Shown in pieces: positions 28,723 through 64,000 of a stretch of 64,000 nt of DNA. A program made the position numbers and the translations under genes. The stretch comes from Alphaproteobacteria bacterium (GTDB lineage: Bacteria; Pseudomonadota; Alphaproteobacteria; Bin95). How positions within the stretch are numbered: the stretch's first letter is position 1; every line of letters begins with the position of its first letter. A model generated the notes under the pieces. It ran no database searches. It was given only the letters and a program-made list of their open reading frames with translations, and was not told the DNA's origin. The stretch is from assembly GCA_963665325.3 (NCBI GenBank), contig CAXXWS020000002.1, forward strand, positions 960,001 to 1,024,000, written 5' to 3'.

Positions 28723-30225
28723 ATGAATAACCCCGCAGTCAGGGTCCTCGCCGCCTGCGTCGCGGTTTTCCTGCTTTCGTCCTGCGAGGCGGCCCGGAAA
28801 TTCGGGTCCGATTTCGACAAATTCGGGACTAGTTTAACCGCCCAGTTCCAGGGAAAAAAAGCGCCGGTCGCAAAGCCCGAAAAAACCGCCCGGAAGCCTC
28901 CGCTCCACCACAGGACCAAACAGGTCGAACGCGACCGGCAGGCTCGAATTTCGACCACAGCCCCTGTAGACCCCGAAGAGATTCAACCGATCCCGAAAGC
29001 GACGGCCGAGCCGAAACGCCGGACGGCGCTGGGCGCCCTGTTGCCGCGACCCGCGCCGCGACCGTCAGGGGAGAACCGGGACGCTCCGGAATATCGGGGT
29101 CAAAAGCGAAAAGGCGTCGCGTCCGGAGAGGGAGAGTGGCGCTCGCCCGACGGCCACCGTTATGTCGGCGCGTTCCGGAATGGGAAGTTCCACGGGCGGG
29201 GCACATATTACTGGCCCGACGGCGAGCGCTACGAGGGCGATTTCCTGGACGGGAAATTCCAGGGAAACGCCGTCTGGTCTATGGCGAACGGGGATCGCTA
29301 TGCCGGGGAGGTGCGCGACGGCAAGTTCCACGGCAAGGGCACCTACAGTAGTCCCGGCGGCGAGCGGTACGACGGCGATTTCAGGGACGGGAAGTTCTAC
29401 GGTTTCGGCGACTGGACGATGGCGGACGGCAATCGCTATGTCGGCGATGTCCGCGATGACGAGTTCCACGGATGCGGCGCCTATATCTGGGCCAATGGCG
29501 AGTATTACGCGGGTGAGTTCCGGCGCGACAGATTTCAGGGACTCGGCAGCTACGCCTGGCCGGACGGGCTGATGACGACCTGCGAATGGCGGGATGACGC
29601 GGAATTGGAGGGAAGCTGCATCGAGCATCCGGCGGACGGGACGCTTCCCGAACGGGCCGCAGCCGCTTGTTTCCGCACGGCATTCTGGCGCGGCGCCCTG
29701 CCGGTTCCGACCGGCGCCGACAGCGCGGCGCGGGCGGAAGGACAGAAGGCGACAGCGGTGGCCCCGGAAGGGGGGGACCGCGAAGAGGCGAAATATGAGG
29801 GTCAGCACCGCGACGGCAAGCCGCACGGCCGGGGAGTCCTCACCTTCGCCAACGGGGACCGCTATGTGGGCGAATTCGCCGAAGGCGAGATTCGCGGGCG
29901 CGGCACGATGCATCTCGCCAATGGCGATGTGTATGGCGGCGACGGCGAGTTCGACAAGCGGGGGTTCCAGGGCTGCGGCCTCTATGTCCGTGCGAACGGG
30001 GACCGGTATCTGGGGCAGTTCCGCGACGGCCGCTTCCACGGGCGCGGAACTTATGAATGGGCCGAGGGCGTGGCCGCGACCTGCGACTGGCGGGACGGCG
30101 TGCGGGTCGTGGAAAGCTGCAAGGCGCACCGCGTGACGGGCATCGGCGAGCGCTACCGGGGCGAGGGCGTCTGCGGCACGCTCACAGACAGGAATGTGAA
30201 GCAGCGCAAGAGATGGGGACGGTAG
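28723..30225 (+). CDS. MORN-repeat lipoprotein
   Basis: Lipobox LLSS-C and many YxGxFxxGKFHGxG repeats in two blocks. Confidence 0.82.
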   Translation: MNNPAVRVLAACVAVFLLSSCEAARKFGSDFDKFGTSLTAQFQGKKAPVAKPEKTARKPPLHHRTKQVERDRQARISTTAPVDPEEIQPIPKATAEPKRRTALGALLPRPAPRPSGENRDAPEYRGQKRKGVASGEGEWRSPDGHRYVGAFRNGKFHGRGTYYWPDGERYEGDFLDGKFQGNAVWSMANGDRYAGEVRDGKFHGKGTYSSPGGERYDGDFRDGKFYGFGDWTMADGNRYVGDVRDDEFHGCGAYIWANGEYYAGEFRRDRFQGLGSYAWPDGLMTTCEWRDDAELEGSCIEHPADGTLPERAAAACFRTAFWRGALPVPTGADSAARAEGQKATAVAPEGGDREEAKYEGQHRDGKPHGRGVLTFANGDRYVGEFAEGEIRGRGTMHLANGDVYGGDGEFDKRGFQGCGLYVRANGDRYLGQFRDGRFHGRGTYEWAEGVAATCDWRDGVRVVESCKAHRVTGIGERYRGEGVCGTLTDRNVKQRKRWGR

Positions 30226-39000: not shown

Positions 39001-40911
39001 CTGCAACGGCAGGGCGAGGAGACGGATACGCCGCCGTTCCTGCTTCCGGGCGCAGACGAGGTCATGGCGCGCGCGGTCGCGCTCTCCCTCGTTGAGGAGT
39101 TGCCGGCGGATATGCGGGCATTCGTGGACGGCATGCTGGCGGAACACGAACGCCATGCCGCGCATGAGCGGGACGCGCGGGGCCTCATGGAGCGCCTCCG
39201 CGCGCACTGGTGGCGCTGGCCGGAGCTCGGCTGGCTGGCGTCGGCGCAAGGCTGTGCGCCCGAGGAGCTGCCGGAACATGCCGCCTGGCGCGAGGAGGGC
39301 GCGGCGCTGCTGGCCGAGGCGCGCGGTCTGGAAGCGATGCCGGGTCTTGCCGCCGGGCTTGAGGGCGAGATGGCGGCGCTGGAACGCATGAGGCTGCGCG
39401 ACGATTGCGAACGGTTCCGACGGGACCGGGTGGCGCTCGGCGCGAGCGCCGTCCGCGCGGGCGTGCCGGAAGTGCACCTGGAGGGCTGCGCGGAGGTCGC
39501 CGAACTGGCCGGACGGCTCTCGGAAGCCGAAAACATCGACCCGGCCGACCGGCGCATTGCCGTGTTGTGGCTGAGGGTCCATGACCGGCAGTCGGCGCTT
39601 GCCGATGCGGTCCGCTCCCTGCCGGGCCGGATGGAAGCATGGCGGGCGCGGCGGGAAGCCGACCTGCCGCTCGACGGGCATGGCGGGGCCGATCCGGTCG
39701 ATCCCGCCTGCCGCGCCTGGCGCGAGGAGGGCGACGCGCTCAGGGACGAGACGGAGGCCATGCTCAGGGCGGGAAGCCCCCACCGCCGCCACATGGACGC
39801 CATGCCGGGCGCGCGGGAGGCCGTCGCCGTGGCGCTTGCGGAGATCGACGGCGCGGTCTTTGAGGACCGCTACGGGCGGTTCGCCTGGTTGGCGCGGCAT
39901 GTGGCGGGAAGGGCGAGGGAGACTGAAACCGAACCCTGCTACGTGCCCCGCTTCCGCGAGGCGGTCGCGCATGCCGCCGTGCTCCACGGCGAGGACGCTC
40001 TCACCGAAAACGGCAGCAAGGCCGTCGCCTCCTGGCTCGACTATGACCTGACATGCGAACGGCTCCGCCGGGAGATCCGGGACTGGCCGGCGCGCGCCGA
40101 TGCGCTCGCGGGCGAACGGATGGGGCCGGGGAGTGACCTCGGAGCGATGCGGCGGTGGCGCGCGGGGGCGGAGCCGTTGCTGGCCAACGCCCGCGCCATG
40201 CTGGCGGGGGGAAGCCCGCATGCGCCCCACCTGACGGCCATGCCGGAGGAACGCAAGCTGCTGGTCGAGACCGCCGGCCGGCTCGGCGGCGCGCTTGTCG
40301 AAGTCGAGACGGCGGAACTGGGCCGCCTTGCGGAGATCGCCGAAGAGGCCGCCGAACGAGCCGGCGGCATCGCGTTCGACACGGACGAATTTGCCGAACT
40401 GATGGAGCGCGTGCATGCGCTCGACGCCCGCCCCGCCCTGCCGGACAATCTGCGCGAGGCCGTCCGGGGCCATCTCCAACGGCATGAGCGCCTGGAGGAA
40501 GACCGCGCCAATGTCGATGCGTTCCTCGACCTCGCCGGCCAGCTGCTGCACGACCGCGACCGCATGGACCGCACGCCTCCCGAGGGCCGGGCGCAGGCGG
40601 CGCTGCCGCTCACATGGGAGGAATGGAAGCGGGACGCCGACGCGATACTCGCGAACGCAGGATCCCTCCGGCGGGACATTCCGGAACGGGAGCTCAAGGC
40701 CCATCTCGCCGCCGCTCGCGCCGGGCCCGGCGCCATCGAGGAAGCCGCCGGAAATATCGCGGACCGGATCGGGCAGGACGAGAAAGCCCGCGCCGCCGCA
40801 GAGCGGAAGCGCCAGGCCGGGGAACAGGCCCGGATCGCTGCCGAGCAGCGGAGGCTCGAAGAAGAACGCAGGCGGGACCGGAGCGAAGGCGGCGGAATAT
40901 CCATGTCGTAG
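36073..40911 (+). CDS. trwC: MOBF (TrwC/TraI-like) relaxase-helicase
   Basis: SYFERDGYY tyrosines, DLTFSAPKSVS, HLTSRDRDPTLHTH, GHAGSGKTT, VDEASM, HAYGSTVHGAQG. Confidence 0.92.
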   Translation: MVATFVELRSSAVTVSYFERDGYYAKNDPEHRQASFWHGGAAQALGLKGHVRPKRFEAVLAGFVPGTDIRLGRMREGERDHRPGWDLTFSAPKSVSIEALVMGDRRVIRAHDEAVRATLDWVERDLLQTRGWDPATRRRPRVKAGGMVAAGFRHLTSRDRDPTLHTHCVLANMTRNAAGEWRSVEPTAIKWNKKLIGSYYRNELARRLEALGMAVAPRLVGRIPGFELAGYSRDFVEAFSARRLAIEADLKRRNLPYTAKNAQAAALRTRRRKSEESLADLVPEWRARVRELGLVRKKAELAPPRPLDPVTGERTAPPCMPALHMTANELRRQRRAPALPKLPRDGAAVRADKASLRLARSTARAELSYEPAPGLPEAVARAVAHVEERRVRIPEAEIRAVALGHAPGRYTLAEVDTAIARLVRSGELVETGSRGADRAFVTDRAVKTERRMLASMRAARGEGRAEADPDTVAARLRESGLTSGQQQAVRTILLSLDRIVGVQGHAGSGKTTMLRTVKELLDGRTIMGLAPSASAARVLAREADIPSRTLQWFLTRHGDLSDPARFARARAEFGRAVLAVDEASMIDTVRMEALLRIARTLGVARIVLVGDTAQLRAVDAGQPFRVLQKAGMATALMDEVLRQKDPELKTAAGSARAGEPGAAIAGLGRRVHEYPREELGLEAGRRWLALSPEDRADALILAPTHAIRRQVNETVREGLAAEGLLHGRVLAIDRLVDRRLTRAQASDIRSYEPGDTIVFHRDVFGCRTGDVCMVTGKDEGHVAMDGPDGGERRFRPSGNAAAYFGLYDAERIEVMAGDRIRWTRNRKAPPARFGHPRQPDLVNGGEAEIVEIDRQRVLFRDDAGRTFPLRRKDPQLRHLDHAYGSTVHGAQGRTARAVIAVLDAHGAVDRAMFHVEVSRASESFLLLTDDREALVEMLEVRPDREDGALEALGLDPAALPVVEPELFEALAADWRTLQRQGEETDTPPFLLPGADEVMARAVALSLVEELPADMRAFVDGMLAEHERHAAHERDARGLMERLRAHWWRWPELGWLASAQGCAPEELPEHAAWREEGAALLAEARGLEAMPGLAAGLEGEMAALERMRLRDDCERFRRDRVALGASAVRAGVPEVHLEGCAEVAELAGRLSEAENIDPADRRIAVLWLRVHDRQSALADAVRSLPGRMEAWRARREADLPLDGHGGADPVDPACRAWREEGDALRDETEAMLRAGSPHRRHMDAMPGAREAVAVALAEIDGAVFEDRYGRFAWLARHVAGRARETETEPCYVPRFREAVAHAAVLHGEDALTENGSKAVASWLDYDLTCERLRREIRDWPARADALAGERMGPGSDLGAMRRWRAGAEPLLANARAMLAGGSPHAPHLTAMPEERKLLVETAGRLGGALVEVETAELGRLAEIAEEAAERAGGIAFDTDEFAELMERVHALDARPALPDNLREAVRGHLQRHERLEEDRANVDAFLDLAGQLLHDRDRMDRTPPEGRAQAALPLTWEEWKRDADAILANAGSLRRDIPERELKAHLAAARAGPGAIEEAAGNIADRIGQDEKARAAAERKRQAGEQARIAAEQRRLEEERRRDRSEGGGISMS

Positions 40912-41477: not shown

Positions 41478-41720
41478 GGCGCCATCCTGCCCCGGAGGGC
41501 GGGACAAGGGCAGCCGCATTCCGCGCCGCCTGCGGGCGCCGGTCCTGTCTGTGCCGTCCTCGCCCGGCGCCCGGTCGTCGAATTTTGTTGCATGACGGTT
41601 TTGCGGCGATTATTGGGCCGTTGTTGAGGGTTGAATGTGTATCGGAGGACATGGCGATGGGTGCGTTTTCGTTTCGCGGCTTGTTGCGTGCGCTTCTCTT
41701 GATTAAGATCAAGTCATCCG

Positions 41721-42003
41721 GCCGGATCGCCGGATCGCCGGATCGCCGGATCGCCGGATCGCCGGATCGCCGGATCGCCGGATCGCCGGATCGCCGGATC
41801 GCCGGATCGCCGGATCGCCGGATCGCCGGATCGCCGGATCGCCGGATCGCCGGATCGCCGGATCGCCGGATCGCCGGATCGCCGGATCGCCGGATCGCCG
41901 GATCGCCGGATCGCCGGATCGCCGGATCGCCGGATCGCCGGATCGCCGGATCGCCGGATCGCCGGATCGCCGGATCGCCGGATCGCCGGATCGCCGGATC
42001 GCC
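41721..42003 (+). repeat. Simple sequence repeat (GCCGGATC)35
   Basis: 35 perfect 8-bp units at 41721-42000 plus GCC. Confidence 0.97.
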
Positions 42004-42026
42004 CCACCTGCGTCCGCGTGACGGCC

Positions 42027-45000
42027 ATGAGCGTTTCTGCATGGCTGCGCCGGCCGGGCTGTCCTTCCTCCCCGCCTGAGTCTTCGCACGCCGGCGGCGA
42101 GCGTTCGCCTTCCCGCCGGCCCCCCAACGCTTCCGACAGTCTCGATGCTTCTTCCGCGCGCGGCGTCGTCGCGCGCGTGGGTTCCGCCATCCGCCGGCTG
42201 CGCCCCGCCCTCGCGGCTGCGCTGCTCTCCCTGCCGCTCTTCGCCGGCCTGACCACCGGGGCCGCCGCGCAGTCGGCGGTCGAGTGCAGCACCGCCAATG
42301 ACGAGGGCTCCTACACGGTGCCCGTCAACTGGGCGCTGAAGCCCTCGGGCGTCGCCGCCGGCGGTAAGTTCCGGCTGCTGTTCATCACCTCGACCACGCG
42401 CGACGCCACGGCGACCGGTATCGCCACCTACAACACGCATGTGCAGACCGCCGCCAAGGCCGGGCACAGCGCGATCTCCGACAGTTGCGGCAATCTCTTC
42501 AAGGTTGTCGGCTCGACCTCCGCGGTGGACGCGCGCGACAACACAGGGACCACGGGCACGGGGGTGGAGATATACTGGCTGAACGGCAACAGGCTCGCCA
42601 ACAACTACGCCGACTTCTACGACGGGAGCTGGGATGATTACGGCAGGAAAAACGAGAGTGGAGGCGATACGAACGACAATATCGTCACCACAGGCAGCAA
42701 CAATGACGGCACTAAACACTCATGGTTCTTAGGTGATACCTTCGTAGTTCGGCAAGGTAACGCGGGCGATTCGACCGCAGGACCTTTGGATGAGAGTAGT
42801 AATGGTGTTCCTGGTGCTTCATCACATCATTTCTACGGCCTCTCCCCCGTCTTCAAGGTGGAGGCCGCAAGCGAGTACACGATCAGCTTCGATCCGGCGG
42901 TTTACACTTTGTCCGAGGCCGATGGGTTCGTCGACGTGACCGGCACTCTGTCGGCGGCGCAGACGAGGGCTGTCACCATACCGTTCCGCTACGAATTCCC
43001 GGACCCAGGCGCCGGATACCGGAATTTCTCCCCCGTGCCCTGGGTGACCGTCCCTGCGGGGCAGACGAGTTTCACCCTGCGCGTCCCGATCCTCGACAAC
43101 AGCCTGTTCGAGAATAACGATCTTGTCGTTATCACTGTGCCGGGGGATGCGAGCGCAAGGGCCGACCTCGTCATCCTGGACGACGAGACCGCCAGGGGCT
43201 ACGCGACTCACGAGGCCTCGGATGGCAGTTACTCATGCATCAGCCGGGGCAGGGACATCCTGGTGGATGACCAATCGGGCGGCACGATAGCGGTTCAGCA
43301 GCCCGGCTGGTGGGTGGGCCAGCCGCCGCCGGGTCTGGTGGTGGACTGGGACCGGGACAACTACGCGGTCGGCGACACCGCGACGATCACGTTCCGCACG
43401 TCGGACGGCTCGCGCTCCTGCGCCGGCATCGAATTCTGGCTCAGCGTGAGCCAGAGTCCCCACCAAACGTGGAATAACGGGCTGCCGCCGCAGCCGGCGG
43501 TACTCCAGTTCCCCAGAGACAGTCACCGCGTGTTCGTAACGCTGGGCCGCGGCCAGACGGAGGTCAGCCGGTCGTTCAAGGTCCTGGCGCCGGGCATGGC
43601 GATTTTCCAGATCAAGAAGGTGTCGAACAGGACCCCCTGGAACCTGGGCCGTCTGGGCGCCAAGCTGCGCGACATGCCGACACCGGTGGACCGCGACGGA
43701 ACCGCGCTGACGGTCAGCCGGGACCTGTGGGGGGCGGGGGCCGCCACCGAGGTGACGGCGACCGTCCACCCGGGCGTGTACTTCCAGTCGGCATCGCGGG
43801 AGGTGCAGGAGGATGCCGGGACGGTGAACCTGACGGTGGCCGTCAATCCGCCGCCGGCCACGTCCCATACGCTCGTCTACACCCTGTCCGGAACCGCGAC
43901 GTGGGACGACGACTACAACATTGCTGGCGCGACCGATAGCGGCGGCGCCGTTACGGTGCCCGCGAATGCCGGCAGCGTGACCATTCCGGTGACGATCGTC
44001 GACGACTCGGTCGATGACGACGGCGAGACAATCGTGGTCCGTCTGGCGACGAGCGGCGATTACCGGCCCGCCACGCCCGACAGCGTGACGCTCACGATCC
44101 GCAATCACGATCCGGTGCCCGAGCCGGAGGTGAGCATCGCGGCCGGGGCCGGCGTGACCGAGGGCGGCAGCGCGAGTTTCACGCTGACGGCCGATCCGGC
44201 GCCGACGGCGCCGCTGGACGTGAGCGTGACGATTGCCGCCGAGGGCGAGTTCGGCATTGCGGCCGGCGAGCGGACCGTCACCATCCCGACCACGGGCAGT
44301 TATGAGCTGACCCTTGCGACGGCGGGCGACGGCGTGGACGAGCCCGATGGCTCGGTGACCGCGACGGTGTACGCCGGCAACGGCTACACGGTCGGCGCCG
44401 CTTCCTCCGGGACGGTCGCCATCGCGGACGACGACGCGCTTCCCGCCGCCCATCCGCTGGTGAAGCATGCGCCGGTGGTCAAGCGGTTCTTCGACCGGAT
44501 CACGGCGAGGAACCAGCACGGCAACGGCGCCGCCGGGGGATGGAACAAGCGCTTCCTGAAGGCGATGGGGCACCCGGACTATGTCGACTACCCGCAGGCC
44601 GCGGTGACGGTGGCGGATGCGACGCGGATATGGAACCACGGCGGTCCCGGCGCCAACACGGCCTGGAACGGCACGGTCGCGGCGGTGACCTATGCCGAGC
44701 GGTATTTCGCCGGGCTGGTGACGCCGCCCGATCCGGTACTCATTCCGGAGATCTCCATTGCGGCGGGTGCCGGCATTACCGAGGGCGGCGATGCGGTATT
44801 CACGGTGACGGCGGACCGGGCACCGGATGCCAACCTCTCTGTGGCGCTCACGGTGTCGGAAGCCCAGGGCAGCGACTTCGTGGCCGCGTCCGACGAGGGC
44901 ACGAAGACGGTGACCGTCCTTGCCGGCGAGACTTCGGGCACGCTTACCGTGAAGACGGAGGACGACAGGGCGGACGAGCCCGACGGCTCGGTGACCGCGA

Positions 45001-46976
45001 CATTGGCAGCCGGCAGCGGCTACACGGTGGCGGCGTCCCCGCAGGACGCGGCCTCGGTTGCGGTGGCCGACAACGACGCGGCGGGCGCTCTGCCGGTGCT
45101 TTCCGTGGAGAGCAAGTCGGTGCAGGAAGGCGACGGGAAGGTGACGTTGTGGGCCACCATCGACCCGTTCCCGTCGAAGGCGGATTTCCCGGAACTTTAC
45201 AGGACGACCCGGCTGAAGCTCCGCACCATCGAGGGGACGGCATGGGACGGTGTCGACTATGTCGGCATCCCCGCCAGCTTCGGGATCACGGAGGCGTGCA
45301 ATTTCCACACCACCCTGGCGCCGAACGGGAAGCACGGGTGCCGGATCGACGAGGTGACGATTCTGGACGACTCCCATGACGATGGCGGGGAGACCTTCCA
45401 GCTTGAGGTGGGATTCGCGGACAACGAGCCGGCGCCGCTGCGCGGCCTGGGCGAGGCGCGCGGCACGGTCACCATCGAGAACTCGGACCCGCTGCCGGGG
45501 GCATGGCTGGCGCGGTTCGGTCGTGCGGTGGCGGAACAGGCTCTGGACGGCATTACGGCCCGCATGGCGGCACCACGCACGCCGGGCATGCAGGGCACGA
45601 TTGCCGGGCAGTCTCTCGACTTCAGCGGCGGGGCAAGCCTGTCTCAGTCCCCCGGATCGTTGTCCGGGGCAGGCGGGGCAAGCTTCGGCGGGGAGACGCA
45701 GGCGCAGGCGCGGGGCATGACGATGCAGGAGGTTCTGCGGGGGTCGAGCTTCTCGCTGACCGGCGAGGCGGACAGCGTCGGCGGCACGCTTGCCTTCTGG
45801 GGCGGGACGCCCGGTGCGGGCGGTCTTGTGTCCGGGTCGCAGTTTGCCGGCAATCAGCGCGGCGACCCCGGATCGGGGTCCGGGGCAGGCGGCACGGCGG
45901 TGCATCTCAGCGGCGAGACGAGCGCGGCGCTTCTGGGCACGGACTATGCGCAGGGCCCGTGGCTGGTCGGGTTCGCACTGTCGCAGAGCCGGGCCGAGGG
46001 CAGCTATGCGGCCATTGGCGGCGATGTGGCGGCGCACGCAAGCGACGGCGAGGTTGAGGCATCATTGACGGCGACGATCCCCTATGCGGCGCTGGCGGTC
46101 TCGGAGCGGTTGAAGCTCTGGGGTGCTGCGGGCCAGGGGTCCGGCGATGTGACGGTGAAGACCGCGCTGGGCGGGAGCCTCAGCGCCGACACGGCCTGGA
46201 GCATGGCGGCGGCGGGCCTGCGGGGCGACCTGCTGGCTCCTTCTGCCGAGGGGACAGGGCCGTCCCTGGCGCTGGTATCGGACGCCTTGTGGGTGCAGAC
46301 CGCGTCGGAGAAGACGCGCGACCTTGCGGCGTCGGAGTCCGATGTGAGCCGGCTCAGGCTGGGCCTTGAGGGCAGCTGGGGACTGGCGCTGGCCGGCGGC
46401 GGCAACATTGTGCCAAAGCTGGAGCTTGGGGCGCGTCATGACGGCGGCGATGCGGAGACGGGCTTCGGGGTGGAACTCGGCGGCGGTCTTGCCTGGCGCG
46501 ACCCGGGCCTCGGGCTGACGCTCGACCTGTCGGGGCGCACGCTGGTCGCGCATAACGATGGCGGGCTGGAGGACCGGGGTATCTCGGCACAGCTCGCCTT
46601 CGACCCGGAGCCTGCGAACGGTCGGGGCCTGTCCTTCGGCCTCGGCCAGGACTGGGGCGGGCGGGCGCAAGGCGGCCTCGACACGCTGTTCACGCCGGAG
46701 CCGCTGGAGGACCGCGAGGGCAGCAGCGAGGCGGAGGCGCGCTGGACGGCGGAGGCGGCCTGGGGCTTCCCGGCGTTCGACGGGCGTTTCACCGGCAGCC
46801 CGCATGTCGGGTTGGGGCTTACGACGGACGCGCGCGACTACAGTCTCGGCTGGCGGCTGACGCCGGAAGCCGCGACCGCGCCCGACCTCTCCTTCGGTCT
46901 CAGGGCGACACGTAGGGAAAGCGGCAACGCCCGGCCGGAGCATACCGTCGGCGTGGACATTACGGCGCGGTGGTAA
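42027..46976 (+). CDS. Autotransporter-like adhesin 1: lectin-like N-domain, Calx-beta repeats, C-terminal beta-barrel
   Basis: Signal h-region LAAALLSLPL...AAAQ; FRLLFITSTTRDAT domain; VTEGG...DDxxDEPDGSVT repeats; RHDGGDAETGFGVELGGG barrel ending in Trp. True start may be 41657 (see findings). Confidence 0.85.
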   Translation: MSVSAWLRRPGCPSSPPESSHAGGERSPSRRPPNASDSLDASSARGVVARVGSAIRRLRPALAAALLSLPLFAGLTTGAAAQSAVECSTANDEGSYTVPVNWALKPSGVAAGGKFRLLFITSTTRDATATGIATYNTHVQTAAKAGHSAISDSCGNLFKVVGSTSAVDARDNTGTTGTGVEIYWLNGNRLANNYADFYDGSWDDYGRKNESGGDTNDNIVTTGSNNDGTKHSWFLGDTFVVRQGNAGDSTAGPLDESSNGVPGASSHHFYGLSPVFKVEAASEYTISFDPAVYTLSEADGFVDVTGTLSAAQTRAVTIPFRYEFPDPGAGYRNFSPVPWVTVPAGQTSFTLRVPILDNSLFENNDLVVITVPGDASARADLVILDDETARGYATHEASDGSYSCISRGRDILVDDQSGGTIAVQQPGWWVGQPPPGLVVDWDRDNYAVGDTATITFRTSDGSRSCAGIEFWLSVSQSPHQTWNNGLPPQPAVLQFPRDSHRVFVTLGRGQTEVSRSFKVLAPGMAIFQIKKVSNRTPWNLGRLGAKLRDMPTPVDRDGTALTVSRDLWGAGAATEVTATVHPGVYFQSASREVQEDAGTVNLTVAVNPPPATSHTLVYTLSGTATWDDDYNIAGATDSGGAVTVPANAGSVTIPVTIVDDSVDDDGETIVVRLATSGDYRPATPDSVTLTIRNHDPVPEPEVSIAAGAGVTEGGSASFTLTADPAPTAPLDVSVTIAAEGEFGIAAGERTVTIPTTGSYELTLATAGDGVDEPDGSVTATVYAGNGYTVGAASSGTVAIADDDALPAAHPLVKHAPVVKRFFDRITARNQHGNGAAGGWNKRFLKAMGHPDYVDYPQAAVTVADATRIWNHGGPGANTAWNGTVAAVTYAERYFAGLVTPPDPVLIPEISIAAGAGITEGGDAVFTVTADRAPDANLSVALTVSEAQGSDFVAASDEGTKTVTVLAGETSGTLTVKTEDDRADEPDGSVTATLAAGSGYTVAASPQDAASVAVADNDAAGALPVLSVESKSVQEGDGKVTLWATIDPFPSKADFPELYRTTRLKLRTIEGTAWDGVDYVGIPASFGITEACNFHTTLAPNGKHGCRIDEVTILDDSHDDGGETFQLEVGFADNEPAPLRGLGEARGTVTIENSDPLPGAWLARFGRAVAEQALDGITARMAAPRTPGMQGTIAGQSLDFSGGASLSQSPGSLSGAGGASFGGETQAQARGMTMQEVLRGSSFSLTGEADSVGGTLAFWGGTPGAGGLVSGSQFAGNQRGDPGSGSGAGGTAVHLSGETSAALLGTDYAQGPWLVGFALSQSRAEGSYAAIGGDVAAHASDGEVEASLTATIPYAALAVSERLKLWGAAGQGSGDVTVKTALGGSLSADTAWSMAAAGLRGDLLAPSAEGTGPSLALVSDALWVQTASEKTRDLAASESDVSRLRLGLEGSWGLALAGGGNIVPKLELGARHDGGDAETGFGVELGGGLAWRDPGLGLTLDLSGRTLVAHNDGGLEDRGISAQLAFDPEPANGRGLSFGLGQDWGGRAQGGLDTLFTPEPLEDREGSSEAEARWTAEAAWGFPAFDGRFTGSPHVGLGLTTDARDYSLGWRLTPEAATAPDLSFGLRATRRESGNARPEHTVGVDITARW

Positions 46977-55520: not shown

Positions 55521-56402
55521 TCAGCGATTGAGGGTTCGCCGCCAATCGCGTCGGAGGGGTCGGAGCCAGACATCCTTGCGGGGCTTTTCGTAGAGCTTGT
55601 CGCGGTCGTAGCGTCCCCGGCCCTGGGTGGTTCCGACATGGATCCAGCCCGACGCCCGGTAGACAGCGCCGGTGTAGCGCGGGGTCTCGACGAAGGTCTC
55701 GATGAGCACGGGGTTGGTGTTGTAGCGTTCGGTCCAGTCCCCGGGCAGGCGGCGGCGCACGATGGCGAGGATGTGCGAGCCGAGGTTGGGAATCGCGATC
55801 CACGGCAATATCAGGAACCTGGGGTTGTCCACCACCAGCGGCAGGTTCTTCTCGCGCAGCTCGGGCGCCCAGCCGATGAAGCGGTCGCGCGGGGCGAGCT
55901 TCCAGGCGGCGGTGGAGAAGCCGAGCATGGCGATGGGCCAGCCGTTGCGGTCGTGGACGGCGTAGCGCATCTGGGCGCCGACCAGGGTCTTGTATCCGAG
56001 GTAGTGGTAGCGGGCGACGAACTCGTTCCACAGCCTGCCCTCGCGAGTCTCGCGCACGACGGTGCGGAAGTCGAGCGGGCGCACCTCGTCAAGCGTCGTC
56101 GGTGCGGGGAACAGCGGCGGCTCGGTCTCCGGTCCGAAGACCATGGGCTTGGGCCGGCCCTGCTTACCCTTCGGCGGCGGCAGGGCGATCACCCCGTCGC
56201 GGTGCATGGCGAGCATGGTGACGCGGGCCATCATGTCCTTGAGGCCGCCGTCGGGCTTGAGCCAGCCGATGCGCCGGCAGAACTCCTTCGACAGGGCATG
56301 GCGGTTGAACGCCGGAGGCCCGGCGATCAGGGAGCGCAGCAGCGCCATTTCATCGGCGGTGAAGTCGCGACCGTAGTAGCGGCACTCGATGGCGCCGGTC
56401 AT
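55521..56402 (-). CDS. DUF4338 (DruA-like) protein, copy 2
   Basis: Identical translation to 52097-52978. Confidence 0.85.
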   Translation of the reverse strand: MTGAIECRYYGRDFTADEMALLRSLIAGPPAFNRHALSKEFCRRIGWLKPDGGLKDMMARVTMLAMHRDGVIALPPPKGKQGRPKPMVFGPETEPPLFPAPTTLDEVRPLDFRTVVRETREGRLWNEFVARYHYLGYKTLVGAQMRYAVHDRNGWPIAMLGFSTAAWKLAPRDRFIGWAPELREKNLPLVVDNPRFLILPWIAIPNLGSHILAIVRRRLPGDWTERYNTNPVLIETFVETPRYTGAVYRASGWIHVGTTQGRGRYDRDKLYEKPRKDVWLRPLRRDWRRTLNR

Positions 56403-58786
56403 CCCGGGGCCGTGAACTTGAGCCTGCGCTCCTCGCTCATCGACCAGGGCAGCCAGGCCGACAAGTCGTCCGGCGGCTGGCGGCCATTTTCCGCACACGC
56501 CGCCAGCCACGCTTCCAGCCAGCGCAGCACGTCGATGCCGTTCATCGAGAGCGTGCCGACGACCGAGTACATGATCGCGGTGAACTCCGCGCCGTCCGCG
56601 CTGTTGGAACCGAAGCTCAGCCCCCGTCCGATTGCCGGAGCACGCAAGATTCTTTCGGCGACATTATTCGTGAGGGGCACTTGCGGGTGGTCGACGAAGA
56701 CGCACAGCCCCTCGCGATGGTTGAGAAGCGAACGCAGCGCCTTGCCTTCGCGCGCGTGCTCCGGCAGAGCGGCCAGCTCCGCCTCGGCGTGCGCGAACAG
56801 GCGGTCGAGCGCCTTCTTCAGTTTGCGCGTCGCTTTCCTGAACGCCGCAGTCTGGCGTTTGCGGCCGGGCTTGTAATGTTCCAGCCGCGCATCGTTCAGC
56901 CGGAAGATCTCCGCGATCCGCTCGATCCATTCCTGGCACCATTGCGTCAGCCGTTCCTGGCCGGCCGCGGCCTCGATGTAGTCGCGGCGCACATGGGACC
57001 AGCAGAAGGCGAGGATCACCTTGCCCCCGAGAAGGCGCACGAGCCGCTTGTATGCGCTGTAGCGGTCGCAGACGACGATCGTGTGGGGCAGGGCTTCGGC
57101 GAACAGCTTGAGCGCCGCCTCGGCGCTGCGGCTCGGGTCGATGTGGAAGCAGACCGCGTCGTGGCTGACCGAGGTCCACAGCCAGGCCCGGTTCGACCGA
57201 TCTTCCCCGCGCAGCTCCTGCACACGCCAGGAGGTCTCGTCGGCATGGCGCACCACCGCCTCGTTCTGGTGCGCGAGAATCGCCTCGAACAGCGGCAGGA
57301 ACAGCGGCACGAAGCGCTTCAGGCTGTCGGCCAGCGTCCCCGGCGACACCGCCAGCCCCTGGGCCGACATCCATGCCGCGGTCCGGCTCAGCGGGCGCAG
57401 CCCGACACTGAGTTCGAAGAGGAAGCGCGCCCAGAAGGTGATTCCGTAGGGCGTGCCGCGGAACAGCCGCGCCACCGGGGGCGCGGACACTTCCATCGGC
57501 GAGGACGCGCACTCGCAGGTCCGGCGCATGCGTGGGCGCTGGATCACGCGCTTGTGGGCCTTGACCTCGATCTCGACGAGGGTGGATTCCTCGACGCCGT
57601 TCGCGGCGTAAGGCTCCCCGCATTGCGCGCACACGCACGCCTCCGGCGGCGGGGCGTGGACTTCAGGGCGCTCCTCGAGCCCGGGCCGCCGAGTGCGGCC
57701 GTGACCGGGCGCGCCGCGCTGCTGGCCGCGCTTGCGGTCCGAGCGCGGCTTGTTCTGCTGCTCGCTCTTGCGCCCATAGAGCCTCTTCGACAGCACCTTC
57801 CCGGTTGCACGGAGCTTCGTGGTCTCGGCTTCCAGCGCCTCGATCCGGTTCCGCGCGCCCTTCACGGTTCTGCGCAACCGGGCGTTCTCCCTCGACAGGG
57901 TCTTGATCGTTTTCTTCTGGCGCCGCGACCGCCTCAGGACGGTGCGCAGGTGAGCCACCTCGTCGAACGGCAACTTCGTCAGCGTCGCCCCGGCCGCGCG
58001 CAGCTTGGCAATCCGGGCCTTCAGCTTCTCCCGCCTGGCCTCGGACATCTTCAGCGCATAGCGCAGCCCGGACACTTCGTGGGACAGCGACCGGGACCGG
58101 ATCTCGGCGTCTCTCAGGAACGTCAGCTCCCTGCGGAAGCTCAGGTTCTCGCGGGACAGCGCCTTGGCGGTTTCCCTGATGCTTTCCGACCTCTCCTTCT
58201 CCTCTTCCAACTGCTTGTTGAGCCGGGCAATCTGGGTGTACAGCGATTTGACCGACATCTCGCGTGCCGGCGCCATTCGACTGCGCCGCGCGGCCTCGGA
58301 TCGCTCAGCGGCGTCCGTCGACACGAGACCGCGCATTCGACCGATCACGATGCGCGCGGATACGATCCTCGCGCCTTCGCCCGGCTCAAGGCCGGGGGCG
58401 CACAGAAGTTTCCCGGGGGCGCACAGAAGTTTCTCCAACTGCGCCAGCTCCGTCTGCAACAAGGGGACGGTCTTGACCGCGCGGCGCAGTTCCCTGGTCT
58501 CTTCCTCGACCGCCGTCAGCTTGCTGCGGCACTTGCCGAACCGCGACTTCCACGAACCGGCATCGCTACGGGCAGCCACTTCGGCCCAGCGCAATTCCTC
58601 AACGCGCGCCTCCGCCGCGTCCGCGCGCGCTTGTTCCCGATCCGCACGGGCGCGCTCACGCTGCAACAGCGTCAGCAAATCGCACGGCTCGTGCTCTGGC
58701 CGGGGCGCGGGAGAAAACCGTATCCCCCCGTCGACCTCGACCGGCGTCAGGTCTGTCGTGGCAAGATCAGCGTCGAGAACCACCAT
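56399..58786 (-). CDS. tnpC: IS66-family transposase, copy 2
   Basis: Identical translation to 52975-55362. Confidence 0.92.
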   Translation of the reverse strand: MVVLDADLATTDLTPVEVDGGIRFSPAPRPEHEPCDLLTLLQRERARADREQARADAAEARVEELRWAEVAARSDAGSWKSRFGKCRSKLTAVEEETRELRRAVKTVPLLQTELAQLEKLLCAPGKLLCAPGLEPGEGARIVSARIVIGRMRGLVSTDAAERSEAARRSRMAPAREMSVKSLYTQIARLNKQLEEEKERSESIRETAKALSRENLSFRRELTFLRDAEIRSRSLSHEVSGLRYALKMSEARREKLKARIAKLRAAGATLTKLPFDEVAHLRTVLRRSRRQKKTIKTLSRENARLRRTVKGARNRIEALEAETTKLRATGKVLSKRLYGRKSEQQNKPRSDRKRGQQRGAPGHGRTRRPGLEERPEVHAPPPEACVCAQCGEPYAANGVEESTLVEIEVKAHKRVIQRPRMRRTCECASSPMEVSAPPVARLFRGTPYGITFWARFLFELSVGLRPLSRTAAWMSAQGLAVSPGTLADSLKRFVPLFLPLFEAILAHQNEAVVRHADETSWRVQELRGEDRSNRAWLWTSVSHDAVCFHIDPSRSAEAALKLFAEALPHTIVVCDRYSAYKRLVRLLGGKVILAFCWSHVRRDYIEAAAGQERLTQWCQEWIERIAEIFRLNDARLEHYKPGRKRQTAAFRKATRKLKKALDRLFAHAEAELAALPEHAREGKALRSLLNHREGLCVFVDHPQVPLTNNVAERILRAPAIGRGLSFGSNSADGAEFTAIMYSVVGTLSMNGIDVLRWLEAWLAACAENGRQPPDDLSAWLPWSMSEERRLKFTAPG

Positions 58787-59735: not shown

Positions 59736-60333
59736 CGCGCGGAGTCGCCCCGGGTTGCCGTCACCGGCAGGTCCTCGTACCGATCCGGACCAGATCGCCG
59801 CCCGGCGTCGAGAGTCGCCATGATGGAATCGCCCGGAGGTCTCATGTCGTTGGCCTGACGACGATACGACGCTCGCCATGCGTGAGCCCGCAGGCGCCGT
59901 CGTGCCCTCGGGCGTCGGTGTCGCCCGCGCAACCGGCGCAGCGAACCGCGGCCGTGGCGAAGGCGGTTGAGCGAAGCATGGCCACGACTATACCGCCCAA
60001 TCGGTGGCGTTCGACAGCGGCGCGGCCAATCCCTTCGAGAGAGAGGCGGAGCCCGACATCGTTCCTGGGCTCGGCCCGCTTGATGTGGATGCGTGTCGTG
60101 ACGTCCGTCCCTCGGGTGCGTCCGACCCGGCGCCGGCTGAGCGTCGGTCGGCGATGGTGGTCAAGGTGTGCGTCGCGCGGCGTTCGCTCTCTGTCGGCGT
60201 TCATTGTATTGATTTGCCGCCGGGTTCGGTTTACGGTTTGCGCAAGTGGGACAGGCGATGCTTGGCGGGATTGTGTGCGGCGTCGGACGGGGCGCGGGAC
60301 GGTCAGCCGGGCGACAGGTTCGGAGGCGACACG

Positions 60334-63300
60334 ATGACCATGACGGACAAGACGCGTGACGTGCTGCGCGCGACGGGAGCGAGTGTTCTGGAGGCGCTGG
60401 GTCTGGACGGCAAGGCGAACGAACTGTTTTCGTCCGGGGGGTTGACAAGCGCCGCTGAGGGTTCCGACAGTATAATGGTCGCCGGGTCGCCGGGTCGCCG
60501 GGTCGCCGGGTCGCCGGGTCGCCGGGTCGCCGGGTCGCCGGGTCGCCGGGTCGCCGGGTCGCCGGGTCGCCGGGTCGCCGGGTCGCCGGGTCGCCGGGTC
60601 GCCGGGTCGCCGGGTCGCCGGGTCGCCGGGTCGCCGGGTCGCCGGGTCGCCGGGTCGCCGGGTCGCCGGGTCGCCGGGTCGCCGGGTCGCCGGGTCGCCG
60701 GGTCGCCGGATCGCCGGATCGCCGGATCGCCGGATCGCCGGATCGCCGGATCGCCGGATCGCCGGATCGCCGGATCGCCGGCCATGAGTGCGTCCGGCGC
60801 ATGGCTTCGCCGGCTCCGCTCCCGCCCGCCGTCCTCCCCGCCTGAACCTTCCCGTTCCGCGGTCCGGCGGCTGCGTCCCGCCCTTGCCGCCGCGCTGCTC
60901 TCCCTGCCGCTCCTGGCGGGCCTTCCGACCGGGGCGCAGGCCCAGGTCGCGTGCGGTACCGCCAATGCCGACGGCTCGTACCCGGTGCCGGACAACTGGG
61001 CGCTGAAGCCCTCGGGGCTCGGCGTCGGGGCCAAGTTCCGGCTGCTGTTCGTGACCTCCACCCAACGCGACGCCACGGCGACCGACATCGCCACCTACAA
61101 CACGTATGTGCAGACCCGCGCCAAGGCCGGTCACAGCGCGATCGCCGACAGCTGCGGCAACCTCTTCAAGGTCGTCGGTTCGACCTCGGCGGTGGACGCG
61201 CGCGACAACACCGGGACCACCGGCACGGGCGTTCCGATCTACTGGCTGAACGGCGCCAAGGTCGCCGATAACTACGGCGACTTCTACGACGGAACCTGGG
61301 ACAGCTACGGCTTTGCGAACGCGAAGACTGAGAGCGGAGGTGCCGCTGTGTTGGGTAATGCGCATACCGGCAGCAACGCTGACGGCACCAAGCATGGCTT
61401 TTATCTCGGCCACGGCAGCGCGGTTAGACGTGGCACGATTCAAAGTGGTGGTAATCCGTTAACTCAGGCCGTATCCCCCCCTACGAGTGCCCACACGTTC
61501 TACGGCCTCTCCCCGGTATTCTCGGTGGTTGTGGCTCCGCTCGCCGCCAAGCCGTCCACGGTACGCGAGGGGGGTGTCAGTTTTGTCACCGTCACCGGTT
61601 TTCCGTCCAGCTGGGGCGCGCCCCGGATAAGGTCCCTTGCCGGCGCCACGACGTCGCTCAGGTGCGACCATGTGACTGACGGGCTGTCCAACTCTGGTAA
61701 CAACCTCGATGTCTGCGTCGGCCTGGCCGACGGCACCCGCACCCGGGGGCATTGGGACGGCGTCGCGTACAGGCTGACGCTGACCGTGGTGGCCGACGGC
61801 GTGGCCGAGAACGAAAGCCTCACGGTGACGTTCGAGGATTCGACCGACACCAGCAGGACCAGGACGGCCGTCATCGCGCTCGACGACAGGTCGCCCCTGC
61901 CGTTCGTCAGCCTCGAAGCGGTTGTCGGCACCAATCCCGGCAACGTGGTTTCCCCGACCCCGCATACCGTCACGGAGGGGGGTGCGTTCAACCTCCGGGT
62001 GAAGATGGATCCCTGGTTCAGGCTGGCCACTCCGGTCATCGTGAACTACTACCTCGCCGACTACCACGGCGAGCGTGTGGTCCGGGGGCCGAGCCTCACG
62101 GATCCGAAGCGGGATCGGGACCCCAACCCCCGGAGCATCGAGATCGGGGCCGGGCATTCCGCTACGGTCATTCACATACCGACCGTGGCGAGCCCCGACC
62201 TCGATGGCGACAGCAAGGTGGAGGTCATCCTGCTGGGCGGCAGGGACTATGCGACCAGCACGGGCAAGCTGACGCTCACGGTCCAGGACGCGGACCCGGT
62301 CACGAACATAGACGACAACACGCGGGCGCAGATGCTGGCCACGCCCTCGACGCTGACGCTCGGCGCCGATGCGGCTTCGGTGACGGAGGGCGGCGAGGTG
62401 ACCTTCACGGTCACGGCCGCCCCGGCGCCGGGCTACGACCTCCCGGTGCACCTGGGCGCGTCGGAGGAGATGGGCGCGGGCCTGGACTATATCGGGCTCG
62501 AACGGGCCCGCACGGTGACGATCCCGGCGGGCGCGACCTCGGCGGCCTGGACGGTCACGACCTGGTCGGACGACAAGCAGCGCGCCGACGGCACGGTGGT
62601 GGCCCGGATCAAGCCGGGCGACGGCTACACGGCGGGCACGCCGTCGACGGTCACCGTGGCCCTGCTCGACGACGACGCGCCGGCGCTGGACCCGTCGCTG
62701 GTGGCGCAGGTCAGAATACTTGCGGGGCAGACCCATAACGGCGCGGCGCATGTCCTGCGCTGGCGGCGGGTGCTGGTGGCGTTCGGGGTGGAGGCGTATC
62801 CGGGCGTGACGGCGATGACGGCGGCGCAAGCCGAGGCGAATGCCCGTCGCTACAGCAGCCCGCTCTGGCCCCGGATCGCGGAGGCGATCGGGGCGATCGG
62901 GGCGGCGGGGAGCGACCCCGCGCCGCAGCAGGCCGCGACGCAGCAGGCCGCACCGGCGGTGGACCCGGCGCTGGTTGCGCTGGTCAGGAGCTACGCGGCG
63001 GAGACCCATAACGGCGCGGCGCATGTGGAACGCTGGATGCGCGTGCTCGCGGCTTTCGGCGAAGACAACGGCCGTGCGCCGATGACGGCGGCGGAGGCGC
63101 GGACCTATGCCGACCGGGGCTGGACACGCTGGGACCCGGTGGTCGTGGCGATCGCGGCGCTGGAAGCGGCGCCCGAGCCGGAGCCGCAGCCCGTAATCCC
63201 GCCGGCGGTGAGCGTCGCGGCCGGGGAGGCGGTCTCCGAAGGCGGCGGCGCGGTGTTCACGCTCACGGCGGCGCCGGCCCCGGCATCGCCGCTGGCGGTC

Positions 63301-64000
63301 GAGGTGACGGTTGGCGCCGAGGGCGACTTCGGCATTGCCGCCGGCGCGCGGACGGTGACCGTTCCGACGAGCGGCAGCCTCGTGCTGACCCTGGCGACGG
63401 TCGATGACGGTACGGACGAGCCGGACGGCTCGGTGAGCGTGACCCTGAACGGCGGCGACGGCTACACGGTCGGTTCCCCGGCATCGGGCGCCGTCGCCGT
63501 GACGGACGACGACCTGCCGCCGCCGGTGGTCTCGGTGACGGCGAAGGCCGGCTCCATTACCGAGGGGGCGGGCGCGGTGTTCACGGTGACGGCGGACCGG
63601 GCGCCGGATGCGGCGCTTGCGGTGCGGCTCACGGTCTCGGAGGAAGCGGGCAGCGACTTCGTGGCCGCGGGCGACGAGGGCGGTCGCACGGTGACCATCC
63701 CGGCCGGCACGACCGGGGTTGCGCTCACCGTGGCGACGGACGACGACGCGGCGGACGAGCCCGACGGCTCGGTGAGCGCGGCGGTGGATGCCGGCGCGGG
63801 CTACACGGTGGCGGCGTCTCCGGGGGATACGGCCTCGGTCGCGGTGGCCGACAACGACGCGGCGGCCACCGGGGCGTCGCTCTCGGTGGACGACGCGACG
63901 GTGAAGGAAGGCGCGGGGCTGATGTGGTTCACGCTCCGGCTGAGCGCGCCGTCGGAGCGGGCGGTGCGGGTGTCGTACCGGACCCGGGAGTCGAGCCCGG
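60334..64000 (+). CDS. Adhesin 2 (paralog of 42027-46976), running off the window; absent from the ORF track
   Basis: SD GGAGG 60322-26 and ATG 60334, in frame with ATG 60475, the repeat and ATG 60784 (MSASGAWLRR...LAAALLSLPL...AQAQ); same N-domain and Calx-beta repeats. Confidence 0.85.
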   Translation, partial: MTMTDKTRDVLRATGASVLEALGLDGKANELFSSGGLTSAAEGSDSIMVAGSPGRRVAGSPGRRVAGSPGRRVAGSPGRRVAGSPGRRVAGSPGRRVAGSPGRRVAGSPGRRVAGSPGRRVAGSPDRRIAGSPDRRIAGSPDRRIAGSPAMSASGAWLRRLRSRPPSSPPEPSRSAVRRLRPALAAALLSLPLLAGLPTGAQAQVACGTANADGSYPVPDNWALKPSGLGVGAKFRLLFVTSTQRDATATDIATYNTYVQTRAKAGHSAIADSCGNLFKVVGSTSAVDARDNTGTTGTGVPIYWLNGAKVADNYGDFYDGTWDSYGFANAKTESGGAAVLGNAHTGSNADGTKHGFYLGHGSAVRRGTIQSGGNPLTQAVSPPTSAHTFYGLSPVFSVVVAPLAAKPSTVREGGVSFVTVTGFPSSWGAPRIRSLAGATTSLRCDHVTDGLSNSGNNLDVCVGLADGTRTRGHWDGVAYRLTLTVVADGVAENESLTVTFEDSTDTSRTRTAVIALDDRSPLPFVSLEAVVGTNPGNVVSPTPHTVTEGGAFNLRVKMDPWFRLATPVIVNYYLADYHGERVVRGPSLTDPKRDRDPNPRSIEIGAGHSATVIHIPTVASPDLDGDSKVEVILLGGRDYATSTGKLTLTVQDADPVTNIDDNTRAQMLATPSTLTLGADAASVTEGGEVTFTVTAAPAPGYDLPVHLGASEEMGAGLDYIGLERARTVTIPAGATSAAWTVTTWSDDKQRADGTVVARIKPGDGYTAGTPSTVTVALLDDDAPALDPSLVAQVRILAGQTHNGAAHVLRWRRVLVAFGVEAYPGVTAMTAAQAEANARRYSSPLWPRIAEAIGAIGAAGSDPAPQQAATQQAAPAVDPALVALVRSYAAETHNGAAHVERWMRVLAAFGEDNGRAPMTAAEARTYADRGWTRWDPVVVAIAALEAAPEPEPQPVIPPAVSVAAGEAVSEGGGAVFTLTAAPAPASPLAVEVTVGAEGDFGIAAGARTVTVPTSGSLVLTLATVDDGTDEPDGSVSVTLNGGDGYTVGSPASGAVAVTDDDLPPPVVSVTAKAGSITEGAGAVFTVTADRAPDAALAVRLTVSEEAGSDFVAAGDEGGRTVTIPAGTTGVALTVATDDDAADEPDGSVSAAVDAGAGYTVAASPGDTASVAVADNDAAATGASLSVDDATVKEGAGLMWFTLRLSAPSERAVRVSYRTRESSP
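60477..60781 (+). repeat. Compound SSR (GCCGGGTC)28(GCCGGATC)9
   Basis: 28 units at 60481-60704, 9 units at 60705-60776, partial units on both sides. Confidence 0.97.

Follow-up and report, generated by a model that had tools for sequence, protein, structure and literature searches.

An octamer tract of 37 units at the start of a large secreted-protein gene, a candidate translational phase switch in an uncultivated alphaproteobacterium

The 37-unit tract and its paralogs

The subject of this study is a tract of 37 octamers near the start of a large secreted-protein gene, here called paralog 2, which occupies the end (positions 60322-64000) of a 64,000-nucleotide (nt) stretch of alphaproteobacterial DNA, referred to as the window (G000:C3:960001-1024000; the genome, G000, comprises 5.58 Mb in five contigs, with 67% G+C). 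All features of this locus lie on the + strand. A Shine-Dalgarno (SD) sequence, GGAGG (60322-60326), is placed 7 nt ahead of ATG 60334, which opens a leader open reading frame (ORF) of 47 codons, MTMTDKTRDVLRATGASVLEALGLDGKANELFSSGGLTSAAEGSDSI (60334-60474), with a second ATG of the same frame at 60340. The frame remains open into the tract, and we propose that this leader is the true 5' end of the gene; an identical leader also precedes other paralogs in G000 and in genome G011. Two promoter-like hexamers are found here: TTGACA (60442-60447), within the leader ORF and read as Leu-Thr, and TATAAT (60471-60476), located 23 nt past TTGACA and abutting the tract, whose TAA closes one wrong frame. 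A further ATG, at 60475, sits inside TATAATGG. As a preliminary description of this stretch, made from the sequence alone, had stated, ATG 60334, 60475 and 60784 follow the SD in a single frame, at distances of 141 and 309 nt, both multiples of 3.

Tandem Repeats Finder delimits the tract at 60477-60781 (period 8, 38.1 copies, 99% matches). In the GCCGGRTC register it spans 60481-60776 and consists of 28 GCCGGGTC followed by 9 GCCGGATC, that is, the 37 units counted previously. Perfect arrays (4-9-nt units, at least five copies) fill only 12 rows genome-wide, eight of which correspond to the six GCCGGRTC arrays described below, indicating that the tract is far beyond what chance would produce in 5.58 Mb. 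Its translation is (VAGSPGRR)n(IAGSPDRR)n, continuing with MSASGAW... and the signal peptide, again in agreement with the preliminary description, and the extension ahead of the signal peptide amounts to 150 residues (26 Arg, 2 Lys, 7 Asp and 3 Glu; net charge +18, isoelectric point 12.0). ATG 60784 lies two bases after the tract, lacks an SD and is followed by MSASGAWLRRLRSRPPSSPPEPSRSAVRRLRPALAAALLSLPLLAGLPTGAQA/QV...; it begins a segment (60784-60942) composed of the post-tract Met, a Ser/Pro/Arg-rich N-region and a signal peptide with h-region LAAALLSLPLLAGL and predicted cleavage after AQA. No ATG, GTG or TTG occurs between 60784 and the h-region (locus L038). Of the two wrong tract frames, one ends at the TGA overlapping this ATG as ATGA (60785-60787, +1 relative to the ATG) and the other at a TGA within the conserved CCGCCTGA (60843-60845, +59).

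The body of paralog 2 (60334-64000) leaves the window and ends at G000:C3:1025778, giving a product of 1815 amino acids (aa) from ATG 60334 or 1665 aa from ATG 60784. The frame from ATG 60334 is open through the tract up to the window end, which is the phase-ON arrangement previously claimed, and the public gene call P0001, with 1815 aa, likewise starts at 60334.

GCCGGRTC arrays were surveyed across the genome, a check that the preliminary description had itself proposed. There are six, each in the same position ahead of a paralogous large secreted-protein gene. In the assembly, leader and gene form one continuous frame at two of them, C3:1020481 (37 units; paralog 2) and C5:41827-42097 (minus strand; about 33 units, one of them a base short), and the remaining four are out of frame: C1:452791 (32 units, with a gene cut off after 98 codons), C1:576871 (14 units), C3:1001721 (window 41721; 35 units) and C4:41795 (13 units). 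Apart from the cut-off gene, the encoded proteins have 1649-1965 aa. All six share a layout of SD+ATG leader ORF, A/T-rich hexamers, tract, junction GGCCATGAGCG, Ser/Pro/Arg-rich N-region and signal peptide. Only one frame into each tract is open upstream and has ATGs; the other two are closed 2-22 nt ahead of the tract in five of the six arrays, and at C1:452791 one wrong upstream frame is open for 100 nt but contains no start codon. Past the tract, one wrong frame stops at a TGA located 8 nt before the gene ATG or in the ATGA overlap, and the other at the TGA in the conserved CCGCCTGA, 50-59 nt in. At the four out-of-frame arrays the leader ends 8 nt ahead of the gene ATG, overlaps it by 1 nt or runs 50 nt beyond it.

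The out-of-frame paralog that the preliminary description had recognised in the window proved real. Its switch region (41644-42079, + strand) has an SD at 41644-41648, ATG 41651, the hexamers TTGTTG (41681-41686) and TAAGAT (41704-41709) separated by a 17-nt spacer, and a tract of (GCCGGATC)35 at 41721-42000; the leader frame ends at TGA 42077-42079, 50 nt beyond the gene ATG at 42027. The gene, paralog 1 (42027-46976, + strand), encodes 1649 aa with a signal peptide, Calx-beta domains and a C-terminal all-beta domain, and a terminator-like site is found upstream of its leader, at 41565-41580.

Arrays of 7-nt units also occur in G000. At L099 (G000:C1:1337013-1337110, minus strand), (AGCCGAG)14 lies directly before an ORF of 9 kb whose basic N-region and signal peptide are similar, making this a seventh switch-like locus. 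At L098:459-612 (G000:C1:1244758-1244911), (GCGCCGT)22 is preceded by a short leader with SD and ATG that contains TTGACG and TATAAT at a spacing of 20 nt; there are stops in all frames past the tract, and the next gene, a 685-aa ORF whose end presumably contains a cytochrome P450 haem motif, judging by eye, starts about 330 nt on. At L100:2650-2775 (G000:C3:709149-709274), (GAGGCGC)18 is located between divergent genes: on one strand an ORF that by eye we take to be cold-shock-domain-like starts 13 nt away, and on the opposite strand, beyond TTGATG, a 20-nt spacer and TAGAAT, an ORF that we take to be lipoprotein-like, from its LAGC lipobox, starts at a distance of a few hundred nt.

Reading frames through the tract in related loci

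Among the genomes searched, four consecutive units occur in 8 of the 16 others of the genus and in none of 24 outside it. When the conserved post-tract motif was used as a repeat-independent query, family members were found in 6 of 17 genus genomes, G000 included, and every assessable locus so found had a repeat at the same site, with a unit that was not always identical. We also scanned a species-level genome collection for TATAAT followed, after 0-4 bases, by three units, which matched 54 stretches. Together with 11 loci from the genus these gave 65 tabulated loci, of which 10 are cut by contig ends and 55 are complete; frame tests were applied to the 54 complete loci with at least 200 nt of upstream sequence.

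Unit lengths are 5, 7 or 8 nt throughout, and none is divisible by 3. The 8-nt units are GCCGGRTC, TGCCGGAT (L024) and CCCCGGAT (L007); those of 7 nt are GCCGGAT (L021), CGCCGGA (L032) and the AGCCGAG of G000; and the 5-nt unit is GCCGA (L025, L027). In a leader or promoter element, units of 6 or 9 nt should be just as acceptable.

In all 32 distinct leader families an ATG-started ORF of 21-70 codons enters the tract, and the other two leader frames contain 2-7 and 0-4 stops across an equal span. The composition-based chance of an open frame is 0.03-0.44 per family, summing to a log10 of -24.8, or -15.1 if a choice of two frames is allowed; because of their homology the leader families do not count as fully independent, although stops would be expected to accumulate in homologues free of constraint. 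In some leaders the G+C content is as low as 38-45%. An SD-like motif is present ahead of the chosen ATG in 46 of the 55 complete loci.

In 23 of 54 loci (18 of 38 distinct ones), the gene frame contains neither ATG nor GTG nor TTG from the tract end to five codons before the h-region, and these start-less loci nevertheless retain intact ORFs of up to 6.3 kb. With no other start codon before the signal peptide, these 23 genes are translatable only from the leader ATG through the tract, an arrangement in which that ATG would be usable at one tract length in three. The same count argues, for the family, against the arrays lying in untranslated leaders, the outcome that the preliminary description had named as contrary to its reading. 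Both wrong frames are closed past the tract in all 54 loci, within 80 nt in 48 of them.

Tract length differs between alleles that are otherwise almost the same. With flanks 98-100% identical (150 nt upstream, 200 nt downstream), tracts of 318, 118 and 174 nt, of 110 and 158 nt, and of 86 and 38 nt were found, differing by whole units only; these are differences between assemblies, not within one population. The independent public protein P0002 corresponds to the paralog 2 gene in frame with 18 fewer units. The arithmetic of the preliminary description, namely that every in-frame length gives the same repeat peptide, is right and can be seen in the translation. Of 27 database proteins retrieved with the N-terminus as query, 21 are fusions of start, leader, repeat, N-region and signal peptide, with 2.6-9.8 repeat periods; five others begin at the post-tract Met and one ends just past the tract.

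A candidate phase switch and its alternatives

We interpret the tract as a slipped-strand (simple-sequence-repeat) translational phase switch of the Opa type, a reading to which we assign a probability of roughly 0.7 from the sequence comparisons above. Translation would start at the SD and ATG 60334 and proceed through the 47-codon leader, the octamer tract and the Ser/Pro/Arg-rich N-region into the signal peptide, yielding a secreted surface protein of roughly 1800 residues. Gain or loss of one 8-nt unit during replication would shift the frame. One length in three, such as the assembled 37 units, would join the start to the gene (ON), and in the other two frames the ribosome would stop at TGA 60785 or TGA 60843 (OFF). 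Since the leader, the repeat peptide and the N-region all precede the cleavage site, the mature protein would be the same at every ON length; and six paralogs, each with its own tract, could generate a combinatorial surface repertoire. The anatomy of the locus, the frame logic, the length differences between alleles, the conserved open leader frame and the missing alternative starts are direct observations, to which the switch reading adds that frames would change within a population, that protein output would follow the frame and that the products may be adhesins. The observations of the preliminary description are confirmed, and its interpretation is supported by comparison among loci.

The closest known system is Neisseria opa, where about 11 gene copies carry CTCTT repeats in the part that encodes the leader peptide, and the reading frame is restored or lost through these repeats (PMC3745409). 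As in opa, a perfect repeat whose unit is not divisible by 3 lies downstream of a start codon, inside the ORF and before the signal-peptide cleavage site; repeat number, which differs between otherwise identical alleles, sets the frame, and a single frame joins the start to the gene. Likewise, the genes form a multicopy family in which each copy would have an independent state and the mature protein would be unaffected by repeat number. In contrast to opa, the unit here is of 8 nt (5 or 7 nt in relatives), arrays reach 37-39 units, or about 100 codons, and the peptide read from the repeat is a basic, disordered stretch before the hydrophobic core. A leader of 21-70 codons with TTGACA and TATAAT precedes the tract, and the hosts belong to more than one class of uncultivated bacteria, probably associated with sponges. 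The likeness to opa is one of switch logic; no sequence relationship was found, and none was sought.

Several observations weigh against a phase switch. In-frame loci number 10 of 54 (5 of 38 distinct), below one third. The C5 paralog owes its in-frame state to the unit that is a base short, an irregularity that could be a real mutation or an assembly error. More generally, ON and OFF states were read from consensus assemblies, in which the repeat count may be wrong or reflect only the majority. A start codon follows the tract at 31 of 54 loci, including ATG 60784 here, which has no SD. The third-position excess in the N-region is weak (16911/14545/21585 differences), with little purifying selection, and basic pre-signal extensions of 150-250 residues are unusual for Sec substrates. 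The motif CCTGCGTC, found just past the tract (within the first 10-15 nt, L040-L093; window 42004-42017) and deleted at 60777-60783 in paralog 2, is conserved in frames that differ by junction type, which points to a constraint at the DNA or RNA level. At L098 and L100, hexamers resembling TTGACA and TATAAT also precede the array, but no ORF continues from there into the next gene. Finally, conserved sigma-70-like hexamers stand directly ahead of the tract, with the canonical 17-nt spacer in five Arenicellales-labelled loci, and a promoter at these hexamers would yield transcripts that lack the leader start.

Conservation of the hexamers far exceeds chance. A perfect TTGACA is present in 45 of 55 loci and one matching at five of six positions in 9 more, as compared with 2 perfect occurrences in 1100 shuffles, and this count is independent of the scan pattern, which demanded TATAAT only. 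Both are positioned by the tract and not by the leader ATG. The codons they impose, TTG, ACA and ATA, are rare at such G+C content; the pattern suggests that selection on the hexamers acts on DNA or RNA and not on the peptide. The spacer between them is of 17 nt (5 loci), 20 nt (16), 23 nt (26), 26 nt (2), 27 nt (4) or 32 nt (1), and many of the 23-nt spacers contain the palindrome CTGAGGGGA-n-TCCCCTCAG. The spacers of 17, 20, 23, 26 and 32 nt, which account for 50 of 54 loci, are mutually apart by multiples of 3, and no spacer length puts the TAA of TATAAT in the leader frame, indicating a constraint of the coding type. The TGA of TTGACA, a TGA in the spacer and the TAA of TATAAT together close both wrong frames. 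The hexamers may serve as an internal promoter, as frame-closing stops, or as a sigma-dependent pause during which the ribosome could draw level with the polymerase ahead of the G+C-rich tract; consensus promoter hexamers within a translated leader are a notable feature of this locus for the study of gene regulation. Two other proposals were considered and dropped: Dam methylation of GATC within the units, because units of the G type (GGTC) serve equally, and a MerR-type promoter with a palindromic 19-20-nt spacer, because spacers of 23-32 nt are equally common.

The alternative that best survives, which we nonetheless consider unlikely, is a leader or promoter rheostat of the HMW1/HMW2 type. 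Repeats of 7 bp, or the octanucleotide GCATCATC in biogroup aegyptius, are recorded upstream of the adhesin genes hmw1A and hmw2A of Haemophilus influenzae (PMC3309571). By analogy, TTGACA 60442 and TATAAT 60471 would form a promoter, transcription would start within the first units, the tract would remain untranslated ahead of a start at ATG 60784, and unit number would tune the level of expression, longer tracts giving less. The two systems share long arrays of 7-8-nt units before large adhesin genes and a copy number that varies by gene copy and strain, and the rheostat would account for the conservation of the hexamers, their placement relative to the tract, their 17-nt spacing in the five Arenicellales-labelled loci, the ATG that immediately follows the tract here and in the other G000 paralogs, and the arrays of L098 and L100. 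However, the hmw repeats are placed by that account in a putative promoter region, whereas the tract studied here is inside an SD+ATG frame and many members lack a later start: an untranslated repeat between transcription start and start codon does not fit the 23 start-less loci. The spacer, of 23 nt here and of 20-32 nt in 49 of 54 loci, is outside the 16-18 nt of sigma-70, a promoter scan of 59800-61000 reported none, and the ATG 60784 on which the rheostat would depend has no SD. It also leaves unexplained the units that are not multiples of 3, the open SD+ATG frame of the 32 leader families and the closed wrong frames. With ATG 60784 after the tract and hexamers before it, an HMW-like effect on leader or promoter is possible at this particular locus.

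We give still less weight to the view that the tract is a hypermutable repeat with no regulatory role, a tolerated hot spot of slippage and recombination in a gene read constitutively from ATG 60784, where the open frame would be an accident of high G+C. The octamer repeat is indeed stop-free in every frame, the genome has 67% G+C and the in-frame fraction of 10 in 54 is not above chance; moreover, 24 locus pairs have a common leader but different post-tract sequence, indicating recombination at or near the tract. Against this, the leader frame is kept open at 38-45% G+C, where the chance is about 0.03, the SD and ATG are conserved, units of multiples of 3 are absent and many loci have no post-tract start at all. 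Out-of-frame genes, in addition, retain intact ORFs of several kb, which permanently silent genes would lose.

Leader-peptide attenuation as in pil1 of Streptococcus gallolyticus, where GCAGA repeats in a leader-peptide gene act through a terminator (PMC3894217), is the least probable of the alternatives and very improbable in itself: the repeat would set the length of a separate leader peptide and the ribosome stop point would govern a downstream terminator, which suits a repeat in a translated leader ORF upstream of a surface-structure gene, the presumed stochastic heterogeneity, the defined and conserved stops of the out-of-frame leader ORFs and perhaps the non-fused arrays of L098 and L100, but the leader here is fused in frame when ON, no terminator-like site was found in 59800-61000 and thus no stem-loop terminator between leader ORF and gene, only 2 nt separate the tract from ATG 60784, and many loci have no separate gene start. 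Furthermore, the fold of 60300-60560, covering the leader and the start of the tract, is no stabler than those of shuffled sequences (z = +1.37), and so gives no evidence of a structured leader element.

Distribution, encoded proteins and genomic surroundings

Returning to the phase switch, its components recur well beyond the genus. The record titles of the scan matches name Alphaproteobacteria, Thalassobaculaceae, Rhodospirillales, 'uncultured Rhodobacter' and Defluviicoccus, as well as Arenicellales and Pseudomonadales, several of the latter as single-chromosome assemblies; short contigs of binned assemblies labelled Prochlorococcaceae, Nitrospira, Nitrospinota and Gemmatimonadota also matched, and these could be mis-binned. 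The presence of the leader, repeat and N-region cassette in two proteobacterial classes (Alpha- and Gammaproteobacteria, by label) is solid, and in other phyla more doubtful. Homology of the N-region and signal peptide that follow the tract extends to every locus. Arenicellales-labelled and alphaproteobacterial loci share segments of 0.5-1.7 kb with 81-93% nucleotide identity, the leaders of the former having only 42-53% G+C, and the passengers vary among Calx-beta, fibronectin type III, leucine-rich repeats and sequences with no Pfam hit. These segments shared across classes, together with the differing passengers, indicate that the cassette and its genes move between lineages.

The host bacterium is probably sponge-associated. 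In four 'sponge metagenome' runs from a single study, 41-52% of the sampled words of the sequence were present. A 1149-nt contig from one run covers 60100-60479 with one differing letter, and the contigs that the four runs yield over 60100-60500 end at the tract, show A>G at 60331 and include loose ends of other paralogous junctions.

A tentative extension, which we regard as doubtful as a whole, is that a horizontally spreading 'switch cassette', composed of the leader ORF with its -35/-10 hexamers, a repeat of a unit not divisible by 3, and the N-region with signal peptide, has been attached to diversified surface proteins by bacteria that live together, probably in association with sponges, and represent two or more classes and possibly several phyla. 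The embedded hexamers would then provide a second layer of control, as a sigma-dependent pause or an internal promoter, and genes with the ATGA overlap could be read as a fusion, be read by termination-reinitiation at ATGA, or be off, which makes three states. In the library of papers searched, this cassette was not found described. Contingency loci are textbook tools of host-adapted pathogens, tied to immune evasion, and the same logic would operate here in uncultivated, probably sponge-associated bacteria, with unusually long arrays, several copies per genome, a spread over bacterial classes and a 5' cassette conserved nearly to the base between assemblies labelled as different classes. If so, it would imply stochastic surface variation inside an animal host and exchange of both the switch and its genes, and would offer a testable handle on how symbionts deal with host recognition or grazing.

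In the products, an N-terminal Sec signal peptide, as in type Va autotransporters, is recognisable by sequence (basic n-region, h-region LAAALLSLPLLAGL, AQA-Q) and conserved across loci, Calx-beta domains were found in the paralog proteins, and the cassette-bearing homologue P0024 has the Pfam autotransporter domain PF03797. The last 360 residues form a domain common to the paralogs. For that of paralog 1 there was no Pfam, NCBIfam or PDB sequence match; an AlphaFold model of these residues is an all-beta meander of low confidence (predicted local distance difference test score of 51.5), and Foldseek with this model retrieved generic outer-membrane barrels only (template-modelling scores of 0.36-0.41). 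A tblastn search of G000 with this domain gave 35 hit rows, spread over the five contigs. C1:507631-508758 and C2:4859-5971 are among the close copies and lack a GCCGGRTC array in the assembly, and the C2 gene would begin at the contig edge; the gene family is thus much larger than the six switch-bearing genes. The preliminary description had also suggested a family of independently switching adhesins with a basic extension of about 150 residues. The family of six arrays and the extension, with its net charge, stand, and 'adhesin', like 'autotransporter', is a reasonable but unproven label, suggested by the Calx-beta domains and the signal peptide.

The first passenger domain (window 60946-61700 and 42280-43000, and also in the C5 paralog) spans about 200 residues with conserved Cys and the motifs FRLLFVTS and PIYWLNG. 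It has no Pfam hit at E below 0.01 and may resemble endostatin/C-type-lectin-like bacterial domains.

Both switch genes of the window appear to be located among mobile-element genes, as named by eye: a 1612-aa ORF at 36073-40911 (+ strand), which we take to be conjugative relaxase-helicase-like, and a 795-aa ORF at 56399-58786 (- strand), presumably transposase-like, between identical tandem blocks of 42 nt (at 54968 and 58392). A megablast search of 60000-64000 against a plasmid collection gave no match. Elsewhere in the window, a 138-nt tandem repeat of 2.3 copies (29185-29502) lies in a coding-looking region, and its unit reads as a Gly/Asp/Phe-rich peptide.

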